Positions 12,085-61,890 of a DNA stretch of 64,000 nt are shown one piece after another (within the stretch, counting starts at the first letter, position 1; each line of letters begins with the position of its first letter). The position numbers and the translations under genes were made by a program. The notes below the pieces were generated by a model. That model was not told the origin of the DNA. It was given only the letters and a program-made list of their open reading frames with translations, and made no database searches. Origin of the DNA: Octopus sinensis (taxonomy: Eukaryota); assembly GCF_006345805.1 (NCBI RefSeq), contig NC_043009.1, positions 42,284,001 to 42,348,000 on the forward strand, read 5' to 3'.

Positions 12085-12470
12085 TTTGCTTATGCCTGTC
12101 TCCTCTCATAGCTCGTCCTCCTAGCGTTCATAATAGTTTTTCTATCGTCTTGGCTTAACGGCCCTCACTGTTTGTTTTTACTGTCTTGTTTTCACTGTCC
12201 TGTTCTTGTTGCCACTTTCACTTTATTTAATTTGCTTTGCAGGAAGGATTGTTTCAACAAAGTCACGTATTGTCCTTACCTTCGAAAACACGGAGTAGAT
12301 GAAACAGGGAAAACTGATGAAGGGGAATATTCTATATGTTGCATGTCTTGTTTCTCTGTTTTGTTTTTTACGTTGTTCGAAAAAAGTTCGTTTTCTATGT
12401 TTTTGTTTTTATGTTTTCGCTTCTCATTGTGTTCAAAGTATTTTTTATGTTGTGTACCCATATATGCATA
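12085..12470 (+). mobile_element. pLTR-like repeat, family X2, carrying the permuted hammerhead-like motif; second copy 61447-61646 (-)
   Basis: The two copies align closely (tgtccttaccttcgaa.ac.cggagta.atgaaacaggga.aactga.gaag.ggaatattc) and end at (TA)n. Confidence 0.6.
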
Positions 12471-12539
12471 TATATATATACATATATATGAAGGTATGTA
12501 CATATGTATGTATATATGCATATATTTATATATTATTTA

Positions 12540-12576
<37 letters not shown>

Positions 12577-30445: not shown

Positions 30446-30712
30446 TAGGTGCAGGAGTGTCTATGGAACAGCAGAGAAGACAAGAACGACTACGAAAAAC
30501 ATGATTGGCCATCTAGAACTGAACATGTTGTTGGTAAACAAAATGAGAAATACCCAGAACTTACCAACCACATGGTTCTGGGTTCATTCCCACTGGGTGG
30601 CACCTTGGGCAAGTGTCTTCTACTATAGTCTCGGGCCGACCAAAGCCTTGTGAGTGGATTTGGTAGACGGAAACTGAAAGAAGCCCATCGTATATATGTA
30701 TGTATGTATATC

Positions 30713-30772
<60 letters not shown>

Positions 30773-37494: not shown

Positions 37495-38218
37495 TATATG
37501 GATACAGGATGTTACAAAACGTAAACAACTTGAAATACGAAAACAACATGAAATGCGAGAGCAGCTTGGGTATGCGAACAACGTGAGAAATAAGTGGAAA
37601 ACAAGACAAGTAACATAAAGAACGACCCTTCATCAGTTGTTGCTGTTCATCTACTCCACATTTCGAGCAATCAATATGAGGCTTCGAAAAGCAGTTGCTC
37701 CTGTGAACCAAAATAAAATTTGGGATCTTGCGGAGGGTCAAAGTTGGTAGCAAAAACAGGACAGTGGAGACATACAACAAACCAAACGAAAACATACATA
37801 GAGTGCCGTTTGACCAGACGCGGTAAGGTAGCGAACGCTGGAGGAACATTCTTTGACAAGAGAAAAGATAGGAGAGGTGGCAGATGAGAATGCGTCTGGG
37901 CTGTGCGACAGATTGAAGGAAAAGAAAGATGATCACGTGAAGAAAAGATGGACGATGGTCACGTATGAGCAACGAGCGAGAGACTAAAGGAGGAAGAGGG
38001 AGAGAGAGACAGATAGAAAACGGTGAAGGGGAGAAAAAAGAATTAGAGAAAAGATGAGAGAGAAAAATGAAAGGGGAAGAAGGAGAGAAAAAAGAATTTG
38101 GGAAAGGAAGAGAGAGAAATCGAAAGGAGGAGAGAGAGAGAGAGAGAACGGTACATGGTAGAGTCGCATCAAAATTATTACGATAACTTACTCGGAAATG
38201 GATCCGTGGCATTCCATC
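37495..38218 (-). mobile_element. pLTR-like repeat, family X3, carrying the permuted hammerhead-like motif; second copy 40745-41013 (-)
   Basis: The two copies align over about 270 bp and are bounded by (TA)n. Confidence 0.6.
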
Positions 38219-38275
<57 letters not shown>

Positions 38276-38518
38276 ATATATATGAAAAAAACAAGTCAAA
38301 AATAGAAAATGCTAAAATAATTTTTATAGTGAACATTTCAGTACCGGTTTCGGTCATTTTGAGACCTTTCAACTGTAACGATTAAATAATTAAATTTAGA
38401 AAAATTAGAAGAAAAGTTTTTTTAAAAGAATATTTCTATAGTAGTGTTCAGATTTAAGTGGCATTCTGCCTTTCTCTGACTCCCTTGTTTGCACTTGTGT
38501 GTCGGAGGTCGTTGTGAG

Positions 38519-39853: not shown

Positions 39854-40589
39854 TATACCTCAACTTTAGAATAAAAGAAAAAATATATATTATACACACA
39901 CAAATATTACACTCCATAGAATCCATTACTAATCAGCCCCTTCATAGCTATACTACACCCATTCATATTCCCCCTTCTCTGTTTTTTCTTCTTCTTCTTC
40001 TTCCTCTTCTTCTTCATCATCATCATTATCATCATCATCGTCGTCATCATCATCACCACCATCATCACCACCATCTTCTCCTTCTCCTCCTTTTCTTCTT
40101 CTTCTTCTTCTTCTTCATATCATCATATTCATCATCATCGTCGTCATAATCATCACCACCACCACCATCATCGTCATCTTCTCCTTCTCCTTCTTCTTCT
40201 TCTTCTTCTTCTTCTTCTTTCTTCTTCACTTCTCCACCCCCTACCCCTTAACTTTGTCACTAATGTTTTTTAGTATAACACCTACGCTAATTCTATAAAC
40301 AAGCCTGTCAATATAAATATTTCCTGAATTGAACTGAGACTGCCAGCGCCGCCACTGACCATTCAAAATACGACCATCAGGGCACTCCCAGATTCTCCCA
40401 TCCCCCTTTCCCCACCAGCCTTCTTCCTCTACTACCCTTCCAAGAACTCACAACGACCTCCGACACACAAGTGCAAACAAGGGAGTCAGAGAAAGGCAGA
40501 ATGCCACTTAAATCTGAACACTACTATAGAAATATTCTTTTAAAAAAACTTTTCTTCTAATTTTTCTAAATTTAATTATTTAATCGTTA

Positions 40590-40627
40590 CAGTTGAAAAG
40601 GTCTCAAAATGACCGAACCCGGTACTG
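40590..40627 (+). ncRNA. Minimal hammerhead of the PLE pLTR (U3-A8 variant); mirror copy at 38339-38375 (-)
   Basis: cag-TTGAAAA-ggtc tcaaaat gacc-GAA(C/A)-ccgg-TA-ctg. The right copy reads GAAC; the left copy reads GAAA but lacks one core A. Confidence 0.7.
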
Positions 40628-41086
40628 AAATGTTCACTATAAAATTATTTTAGCATTTTCTATTTTTGACTTGTTTTCACGATATATCAACTCGTGTGTT
40701 CCTTTTCACCCTTATACATATATATATTATATATATATATATGCATATATGAGTACAGGACGTCACTAAACGTAAACAGTATGAAATACGAAGTCAAACT
40801 TGGGTATTCGAATAACGAGAGAAACAAATCGAAAACAAGACAGGTAACATGAAGAATGACCCTTTATCAGTTGTTGCTGTTCATCTACTCCACATTTCGA
40901 GCAATTAACGACAATATGAGGCTTCGATAAACAGTTGCCCCCGCGAACCAAAATAAGATTTGGGATTTTTGCGGAGGGTCAAAGCTGGTAACAAAAAACG
41001 GGACAGTGGAGACTTAATAGAGATGATTTTATTTCATATGTAAATATATATATATACGCTCACACACATCTACATATACACATACA

Positions 41087-41760
41087 CTGTGTGGTACGAA
41101 GCTTGCTTCTCAACCTCATGGTTCTTGGTTCAATCCCAGTGCCTGACACCTTAGTCAAGTGTCTTCTGCTATAGCCTCTGGCCGACCAAACCCTTGTGAG
41201 TGTATTTGGTAGACGGAAACTGAAAGAAGCCCGTCGTTTATATGTGCTTGTGTGTATGTATGAGTGTGTGTGTGTGTGTGTTGTGTGTGTGTGTGTATTT
41301 GTGTGTTTCTGTTTGCCCCCACCATCGCTTGACAACCAGTGTTGGTGTGTTTACGTCTCTGTAACTAGACGGTTCGGCAAAACACACCGATGAAATAAGT
41401 ACTAGGCTTACAAAGAATAAGTTCTAGGGTCGATTTGTTCGACTAAAGGCGGTGCTGCAGCATGGTCGCAGTTAAATGACTGAAACAAATAAAAGAATAA
41501 AAGAGGGTGTGTGTGTGTGTGCGTGTGTAAGTGTTCTATCAGTATTTTTGCCGAACCGCTAACATACAAGGATGTAAACACACCAACACCGGTTGCCAAG
41601 CGATAGATGGTGGGGACAAACGAAGACAAAAACACACACAGATATATACATATATATAGGACGGGCTTCTTTCAGTTACTGTCTACCAAATCCACTCACA
41701 AGACTTTGGCCGGCCCGAGGCTATAGTAAAATATACTTGCTTAGGGTGCCATACAGTGGC
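41087..41760. mobile_element. Tail-to-tail inverted SINE-A pair (41087-41503 +, 41530-41760 -)
   Basis: Family motifs in opposite orientation, about 30 bp apart. Confidence 0.8.
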
Positions 41761-58998: not shown

Positions 58999-59363
58999 AG
59001 GCGCAGGAGTGGCTGTGTGGTAAGTAGCTTGCCACTGCGTGGCATCTTGGGCAAGTGTCTTCTGCTATAGCCCCGGGCCGACCAATTTGGATTTGGTAGA
59101 CGGAAACTGAAAGAAGCCCGTCACATATATGTATATATATATATATATATGTATGTGTGTCTGTGTTTGTCCCCCAAGCATTGCTTGACAACCGATGCTG
59201 GTGTGTTTACGTCCCCGTCACTTAGCGGTTCGGCAAAAGAGATCGATAGAATAAGTACTGGGCTTACAAAAGAATAAGTCCCGGATTCGATTTGCTCGAC
59301 TAAAGGCGGTGCTCCAGCATGGCCGCAGTCAAGTGACTGAAACAAGTAAAAGAGTAAAAGAGT
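58999..59363 (+). mobile_element. SINE-A, young copy with internal deletions
   Basis: Near-consensus sequence with CpGs intact. Confidence 0.88.
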
Positions 59364-61271: not shown

Positions 61272-61890
61272 AAACCACATATAACAAACTAAAAATACAC
61301 GTTATAGCAACAAACGACGTTACTACAGTTTTTAACCACTAAATCAGTGGTGATGTCGTTTCCTACGGAGCAGGCGTGATAAACATTACTGATGCATATA
61401 ATAATAAAAATAATATATAAATATATGCATATATACATATATGGGCATGCCTACATATATATGGGTACATGACATCATACAAACGTTGAACACAATGAGA
61501 AACGAAAACATAAAAACAAAAACATAGAAAACGAACTTTTTTCGAACAACGAAAATAACAGAGAAACAAGACAAGCAGCATAAAGAATATTCCACTTCTT
61601 CAGTTGTCCCTGTTTCATGTACTCCGCGTCTTCGAAGGTAAGGACATACATATGTATATATGAATGTATGCATGTATGTATGTATGTATGTATGTATGTA
61701 TGTGTGTATGTATGTATGTATGTATGTATGTATGCATGCATGCATGCATGCATGTATGTATGTATGTATGTATGTATGTATGTATGTATGTATGTATGTA
61801 GGGGAGAATTCACGAAAAAACAAAAGACGAAGACAGGTGGTGTAGAAAACAAACAGATATATTAGTATAACGCTCAGGAATTTAAAAAGT

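Follow-up and report, generated by a model that had tools for sequence, protein, structure and literature searches.

Positions 12216-12327 (plus strand) of a 64,000-nucleotide (nt) piece of the Octopus sinensis genome (contig NC_043009.1, positions 42,284,001 to 42,348,000 of the forward strand; this whole piece is called the window below) raise the question of whether a series of hammerhead-like motifs in permuted order is, or once was, a self-cleaving ribozyme. Judged by its sequence, the stretch is probably a dead, 5′-truncated copy of a non-coding retroelement, named X2, whose ancestral form would have carried a rewired hammerhead-type core that is predicted to cut itself after GUA, between positions 12269 and 12270. 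Each of the motifs listed by the initial annotation is found in its place on the plus strand, namely tttcactt (12216-12223), gaagg (12243-12247), tcacg-ta (12263-12269), ttgtcctt (12270-12277), ccttc (12279-12283), gaaa with an extra a (12284-12288), cacgg (12289-12293), agggaaaa (12306-12313), ctgatga (12314-12320), and aggggaa (12321-12327). The minus-strand copy reported near 61600 also reads as described, with tgtcctt/agggaca, CUGAAGA, and agtggaa. The two copies are referred to as copy A and copy B, respectively.

The architecture is described here on the X2 majority sequence, which was built from 65 copies. Its 5′ part consists of P0a (UUCACCCU), the hairpin Px (CCGCAAA ... UUUGCGG), the 5′ strand of stem II (GAAGG), and the 5′ strand of the helix Pt (CUGUUUC). 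The middle part follows with the 5′ strand of stem III, U-A and the predicted cut, the 5′ strand of stem I, three nucleotides, the 3′ strand of stem II (CCUUC), GAA, and the 3′ strand of stem III. The 3′ part is formed by AGUAGAU, the 3′ strand of Pt (GAAACAG), the 3′ strand of stem I, CUGAUGA, and P0b (AGGGGAA). The strands hence run in the order stem II 5′ strand, site strand, GAAA strand, CUGAUGA strand. All helices but P0 pair completely (I 6/6, II 5/5, III 6/6, Px 7/7, Pt 7/7, and P0 5/7), as opposed to one to five pairs in slid registers. Stem I (UUGUCC/GGACAA) comprises 6 base pairs (bp) and can be extended to 8 bp. Stem III, on whose formation in the consensus the initial annotation had made its reading depend, was described there as weak; this holds for copy A, where both strands are changed, but not for the family majority, which forms 6 bp (UCGCGU/ACGCGG) with A15.1-U16.1 included. 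The extra nucleotide after GAA is likewise real in both window copies (GAAAA in copy A and GAAGA in copy B), whereas the majority has a canonical GAAA box. The string GAAACGCGG, which contains this canonical box, is the commonest variant, with 43 occurrences among the first 100 of 338 matches as counted by eye; 17 of the same 100 have one A fewer and six have one A more.

The X2 majority keeps all conserved bases of the hammerhead core (CUGAUGA, GAAA, A15.1-U16.1, H17 = A, and G10.1-C11.1), and stems I, II, and III adjoin these bases. The 5′ strand of stem II is located upstream of the cleavage-site strand and not next to CUGAUGA. No base separates P0a from Px, Px from stem II, the 3′ strand of stem II from GAAA, or CUGAUGA from P0b, and these four junction corners are gapless in X2 as well as in the related families Y and Z described below. 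Because CUGAUGA leads into P0, P0 into Px, and Px into stem II without gaps, a four-way junction is read as interrupting the core strand between A9 and G10.1. This junction consists of the stack of core and stem II together with P0 and Px and contains no unpaired bases. A sixth helix, Pt, which the initial annotation does not mention, connects the far ends of stems I and II.

The order P0-II-III-UA-I-II′-GAAA-III′-linker-I′-CUGAUGA-P0′ that had been proposed from the window is present in the X2 majority and in four relatives, with compensating changes. For family Y, the genome contains 3412 first-look candidates, and a majority was derived from 33 copies; its helices are I UUGUCG/CGACAA, II GAGC/GCUC, III CCUCAU/AUGUGG, and P0 GACCCU/AGGGUC, and in one sub-group the partner strand of stem III is a perfect AUGAGG. 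One of the two Y copies in the window (37589-37760) lacks, compared with the Y majority, about six bases near the 5′ strand of stem I and one to two in the 3′ strand, and the shortened strands still pair as UUG(A)UUGC/GCAACAA. Family Z was discovered next to a match to the GIY-YIG endonuclease domain and has the site GUC, stem I UCGCU/AGCGA, stem III UAUACGU/ACGUUUA, Px CUGCGAAAA/UUUUCGCAG, and P0 CCCCU/AGGGG. Its unit measures about 857 nt, and two cores are spaced by 834-862 nt in 14 of 30 loci. With 40 scored matches that are 97-100% identical (the query itself being 100%) and a pattern that matches 1218 places, Z is a young family, and its rewired layout is intact, for example at L136:1440-1592 (among loci L132-L160). 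In a variant, W, stem I resembles that of Z and stem III that of X2.

The fourth relative is found in Naiads, Penelope-like elements (PLEs) with an open reading frame (ORF) that carries an N-terminal GIY-YIG endonuclease (EN) and a C-terminal reverse transcriptase (RT). The published octopus Naiad consensus, Naiad_Obim, has the rewired layout in its last ~170 nt, with II GACAC/GUGUC, Pt CGGAU/AUCCG, III AUGGU/ACCAU, the site GUA, I CUGCCC/GGGCAG, GAAA, and CUGAUGA. Herein, a hairpin immediately precedes stem II, and P0 is weaker. The CUGAUGA block of this consensus occurs at 724 places in the genome within two mismatches, compared with none in the controls, and 15 of the 20 Naiad-type loci fetched contain the whole module, the other five being broken or truncated inside it. 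The linker motif AGTAGATGAA has one match in the Naiad supplement, in a GC-rich sequence without likeness to the module; since this match is taken as chance, the Naiad module shares the design but not the linker sequence.

The core-base pattern of hammerheads (C3 U4 G5 A6 N7 G8 A9, G12 A13 A14, A15.1-U16.1, and an H17 other than G) is kept by the X2 and Y majorities and also by the commonest Z string, by W, and by the Naiad 3′ end. The helices are fully or nearly fully paired in every family, which slid registers are not. Changes on both sides that preserve pairing outnumber broken pairs in each comparison (seven versus one for X2/Z, nine versus one for Y/Z, and four versus two for X2/Y). Across 71 copies of X2 and Y, 91.9% of the cells are paired compared with 40-56% for slid partners, and the covariation score is 0.158 compared with at most 0.079; these values leave out Pt and positions 3-5 of stem II on account of their misalignment by MAFFT between the two families. 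The 5′ strand of stem II covaries with its 3′ strand, being GAGC/GCUC in Y and GACAC/GUGUC at the Naiad 3′ end as opposed to GAAGG/CCUUC in X2. Pt changes in the same way, from CUGUUUC/GAAACAG in X2 to CUGUU/AACAG in Y and CGGAU/AUCCG at the Naiad end, and the linker between stems I and II measures 3 nt in X2, 6 in Y, 5 in Z, and 2 at the Naiad end. Stems I to III thus flank the core boxes with covariation support, and the Naiad 3′ end differs in all three of them.

Within the window, nhmmer finds four copies from two families (X2 and Y), which are listed in the table together with the parts of copy A; the six copies from three families counted in the initial annotation are not recovered, and the third family was not located. 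Aligned with its family, copy A shows a deletion of ~21 nt right after position 12221, with which P0a lost its end and Px its 5′ strand. Four further substitutions distinguish it from the majority, located in stem III (on both strands) and in the 3′ strands of Px and stem I; those in stem III and in the hairpin strand are of the CpG type, and the one in stem I is a C-to-A change. Its core retains CUGAUGA and UA and has GAAAA in place of GAAA. Copy B reads tgtcctt ... agggacaa-ctgaaga-agtggaa at about 61646-61554 (minus strand), with GAAGA instead of GAAA.

Table. Copies of the X2 and Y families in the window and component strands of X2 copy A (window coordinates; family sequences refer to the X2 majority).
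Feature	Position	Strand	Remarks
X2 copy A	12087..12545	+	5′-truncated unit with an AT-rich microsatellite tail at its end; 29 genomic copies align over the span
P0, 5′ strand remnant	12216..12221	+	tttcac; family UUCACCCU
Px, 3′ strand, decayed	12236..12242	+	tttgcag, family UUUGCGG; partner strand deleted in copy A
Stem II, 5′ strand GAAGG (10.1-10.5)	12243..12247	+	5/5 pairs with ccttc
Pt, 5′ strand	12249..12255	+	ttgtttc; family CUGUUUC
Stem III, 5′ strand and site	12263..12269	+	tcacgt-a; family UCGCGU-A; predicted cut between 12269 and 12270
Stem I, 5′ strand	12270..12277	+	ttgtcc(tt)
Stem II, 3′ strand	12279..12283	+	ccttc
GAAA box with one extra A, then stem III, 3′ strand	12284..12293	+	gaaa-a-cacgg; family GAA-ACGCGG
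Linker agtagat and Pt, 3′ strand gaaacag	12294..12307	+	linker AGUAGAUGAA conserved in X2, Y, Z, and W
Stem I, 3′ strand	12308..12313	+	ggaaaa; family GGACAA; C-to-A change breaks one pair
CUGAUGA core box	12314..12320	+	
P0, 3′ strand	12321..12327	+	aggggaa, immediately 3′ of CUGAUGA
Family Y copy	37589..37760	-	same layout, CUGAUGA intact; matching deletions in both stem I strands
Second family Y copy	40823..40997	-	core decayed to CUGAUAA
X2 copy B	61435..61646	-	5′-truncated; start (tgtcctt...) within one base of the predicted cut, adjoining an (ATAC)n microsatellite

The expectation that X2 is present in very many copies is borne out by the genome searched (2.72 Gb). A 225-nt query yields 4760 first-look candidates, of which the 40 that were scored are 88-93% identical, and two anchored patterns have 338 and 354 exact matches, respectively, as opposed to none in reversed controls. 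Many other copies reach farther 5′ than copy A, to varying extents. Walking upstream in search of an ORF leads into a further X2 unit in partial tandem: in a 999-nt reference, positions 733-946 are repeated by positions 1-192, which gives a unit of ~732 nt, and arrays comprise up to ~2.6 units. The hammerhead-like module is located ~290 nt from the constant 3′ end of the insertions. The copies are dispersed and tandem and non-coding, as is typical of animal non-long terminal repeat (non-LTR) retrozymes, whose units are further defined by a type I hammerhead; the strand order of X2 is not that of type I, and no Rfam match is obtained. X2 is an old, dead family.

The adjacency to PLE-type RT/GIY-YIG ORFs that had been put forward for checking is not seen. 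X2 units, like those of Z, contain no consistent ORF, and no EN-RT, RT, or GIY-YIG ORF lies in or beside units of X2, so that X2 lacks the defining ORF of a Naiad. A genome search for GIY-YIG gave 5029 first-look candidates, from which 20 loci were fetched, and the X2, Y, or Z copies near such matches were rejected as parts of those elements, being separate insertions. A pair of copies spaced by 5 kb at locus L031 was set aside as a segmental duplication without large ORFs. At locus L109 (4269-6992, plus strand), an open frame of 908 amino acids is situated 1.2 kb downstream of two X2 fragments and matches no Pfam family at E up to 0.01; it was not retained as a partner, as no link to X2 was shown.

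The closest published thing is represented by the type-SGC and type-CSG hammerheads (HRIMA-1 and variants), non-circularly permuted forms that were experimentally shown to cleave (Eckert et al. 2023, PMC10085705). As in type SGC, the core boxes and stems I-III of the X2-type module follow an order that no circular permutation yields, and the fold is pseudoknotted. The blocks S, G, and C (the site, GAAA, and CUGANGA strands) have the same order, and the short linker between stems I and II and the helix that ties these stems together in type SGC have counterparts in the X2-type module, the helix being Pt. However, the blocks, including that of CUGANGA, are assumed by Eckert et al. to be uninterruptible, whereas block C of the X2-type module is not unbroken: its CUGANGA enters P0, and the covarying partner of stem II is found upstream of block S. 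Starting from P0, the X2-type order corresponds to that of type CSG, circularly permuted and with block C split by an insertion. The examples of Eckert et al. come from metatranscriptomes, metagenomes, and RefSeq, with cleavage shown, in contrast to the X2-type modules, which reside in animal retroelements and are predicted to cleave.

Animal retrozymes (Cervera and de la Pena 2020, PMC7229834) resemble X2, Y, and Z in being non-coding units of a few hundred nt that are dispersed and form short tandems. They also share one hammerhead-type motif per unit and an apparent dependence on PLEs (PMC7229834; bioRxiv 10.64898/2026.07.22.740005). Their motifs are canonical or minimal type I hammerheads found by standard descriptors, and the preprint likewise concerns type I motifs, whereas X2, Y, and Z have the permuted split form that such descriptors miss; the units of X2 and Z (~732 and 857 nt) are longer as well. 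With Naiads (Craig, Yushenova, Rodriguez and Arkhipova 2021, PMC8557442), X2 shares the preference for insertion into (TA)n, which that paper lists as target of cephalopod Naiads, but as X2 has no EN-RT ORF, it is not itself a Naiad. In the same paper, Naiads are reported without canonical hammerheads, and only 'HHR_core' and 'HHR_half_core' strings are flagged; two cephalopod Naiads carry the half_core flag, and Naiad_Obim is unflagged. This apparent lack has been used in arguments on the role of ribozymes in PLEs. Within the literature searched, which left most subscription journals outside, neither a hammerhead with an interrupted CUGANGA-stem II block nor a non-circularly permuted hammerhead in an animal retroelement was found.

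Beyond the window, the evidence leads to a broader proposal, for which belief and doubt are evenly balanced: that the architecture is a new one, a non-circularly permuted hammerhead with a split catalytic strand, which would be the working ribozyme of Naiads and of thousands of non-autonomous octopus repeats and would cut in vivo, yielding unit-length and probably circular RNA templates. The fold would form the usual active site, with stem II likely stacked under the core and P0 likely stacked on Px. In hammerhead structures, stem II stacks under the G12-A9 and A13-G8 pairs. Unit-length or tandem transcripts would cut themselves after H17, and the monomers would likely be ligated into circles and then copied by a Naiad-type RT with priming at (TA)n, in line with what has been proposed for animal retrozymes. 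Such a cycle would explain why the 3′ ends are constant and lie in TA-rich sequence, why the 5′ ends vary, why tandems are partial, and why (TA)n is listed as the target of cephalopod Naiads.

A number of results weigh against the rewired hammerhead interpretation of X2, either for the window copy or for the module at large. Copy A is a dead relic. No intact X2 copy was found, the full motif being present in 0 of 65 sampled copies, and the 63-nt core of the majority has no exact genomic match and three with one mismatch. The window contains no Rfam hammerhead match at gathering score, none appears among the best 150 of 285 matches at E up to 10, and a sensitive search confined to the surrounding 301 nt yields none. 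This blank is expected because the strand order is permuted and the models encode only types I-III. Sites of CTGANGA number 27 on both strands of the window, as opposed to ~31 expected at equal base frequencies. A strict descriptor of site, GAAA, and CUGANGA has no match in the window or in 30 shuffles, and a relaxed one has none in the window compared with a mean of 0.73 per shuffle. Because the descriptor fails, the motifs occur at chance level, and Rfam gives no match, the window copy would not be accepted as a ribozyme on its own; it is the repeat family, and not the motifs by themselves, that rises above chance. Across 30 loci, the descriptor matches just four times, owing to the decay of most copies. 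Type I, II, III, discontinuous, and opposite-strand hammerheads were tried as readings and rejected, as CUGAUGA is followed by no stem II hairpin and the other strand of the element has no CUGANGA.

Further points on the same side concern insertion ends and folding. The 5′ ends of X2 are not enriched at the predicted cut: of 23 copies truncated within -60 to +40 of it, one, namely copy B, starts there. Among the first 100 of 1218 Z matches, 95 have the family's own seven bases upstream of the cut, four have these with one or two changes or an inserted base, and one has another sequence, so at most one has foreign sequence there. One of the five Naiad-type breakpoints among the 20 loci falls at the predicted cut. 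The absent footprint at 5′ ends is compatible with templates that are religated (circular) or uncut. When an intact Z copy is folded without pseudoknots, its stability does not exceed that of shuffles (z = -0.49), and the minimum-energy fold, which recovers P0 and Px, pairs the upstream strand of stem II with a nearby CUUC. No hammerhead that was tested with a backbone break between A9 and G10.1 was found in the literature searched. The A9/G10.1 region is next to a known metal site. Moreover, the five families are related, so the compensating changes amount to a limited number of events on a small tree, and part of the two-sided changes seen in single copies consists of CpG decay that struck each strand.

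Three other accounts have to be weighed against a self-cutting core. A conserved structured RNA module that does not cleave, for instance a 3′ recognition or priming structure for the Naiad RT in which the boxes are kept for another reason or are the relic of a ribozyme, is unlikely, yet it draws on several of the facts above: the module is ~290 nt from the constant 3′ end of the insertions and at the 3′ end of the Naiad consensus, insertion ends bear no footprint of cutting, and the core strand is interrupted where Eckert et al. took the blocks as uninterruptible. What speaks for a catalytic core instead is that five families keep every conserved hammerhead core base while the surrounding helices vary freely, and that G10.1-C11.1, A15.1-U16.1, and an H17 other than G are retained as well. 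It is considerably less probable that the module is an ordinary type-SGC hammerhead in which the AGGGG after CUGAUGA pairs with CCUUC as stem II, while P0, Px, and the upstream GAAGG belong to an inactive fold or a switch. In X2, Z, and W, such pairing would consist of two G-C pairs and as many G.U pairs, and competing pairings do exist, the minimum-energy fold of Z placing the upstream GAAGG elsewhere. In X2, however, the direct pairing (A.C, G.U, G.U, G-C, G-C) has an A.C mismatch as its first position, 10.1-11.1; Y and the Naiad end offer even less, and the pairing fails there (AGGGU against GCUC and UGGAG against GUGUC, respectively), and the upstream strand changes there along with the 3′ strand of stem II. 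Because direct pairing is poor and the upstream strand covaries with its partner, the split-core arrangement is preferred over plain type SGC.

Chance resemblance, that is, short boxes (CUGANGA, GAAA, and UA) and short complementary runs picked by eye from an abundant repeat, is very unlikely and the least probable of these accounts. It would fit the chance-level frequency of CTGANGA, a window copy that fails a relaxed descriptor which shuffled windows pass at times, and the unremarkable folding energy. Against it stand the strict descriptor, which matches in none of the 30 window shuffles, the family majority, which improves each helix that looked weak, and the five families, which keep the layout with differing helix sequences and zero-base junction corners. 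The preferred interpretation is that of a rewired hammerhead-type core in a decayed retroelement copy.

Sequencing runs and single loci provide additional observations on the Z and Naiad-type relatives. In runs X1-X19, which carry four organism codes, 45-77% of sampled 31-letter words of the Z unit are present, so near-identical Z sequence occurs under several species labels. Assembled contigs of four runs, whose status as RNA is guessed, bridge the Z cut site without a pile-up of ends, and one contig of 862 nt spans one Z unit, which collapsed tandem DNA would fit equally well. At locus L176 (~1400-1500, oriented), one Naiad-type copy has a stretch of the Naiad 5′ region fused directly to the putative ribozyme module, at most one base away from the predicted cut; this single case could have arisen by template switching at the end of an RNA that had been cleaved.

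Other repeats are present in the window as well. An abundant one, with 13 copies of an 83-nt segment (e.g., 30655-30737, 59088-59170, and 41201-41283), carries GACGGAAACTGAAAGAAGCCCGTCGTATATAT, which consists of a 5-bp stem around GAAA and a CUGAAAGA string; this might be what had been counted as a further family. A perfect inverted repeat of 152 nt (38367-38518 and 40447-40598; 100% complementary, with 1928 nt between the arms) has one arm close to the Y copy at 40823-40997. The Rfam search at E up to 10 also yields many matches to microRNA families (mir-297, mir-3149, mir-1277, and mir-466), all below gathering score; these coincide with TA/TG microsatellites and have the look of low-complexity artefacts.

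Cleavage by this fold would mean that a hammerhead core can accommodate a scrambled strand order together with a catalytic strand interrupted between A9 and G10.1. Searches for hammerheads would then need wider descriptors, as current descriptors and Rfam models are blind to such a topology. The near-identical natural copies of family Z are ready material for a direct bench test. For the cephalopod genome, the finding, if true, would mean an additional class of retrozyme-like repeats, present in thousands of copies.
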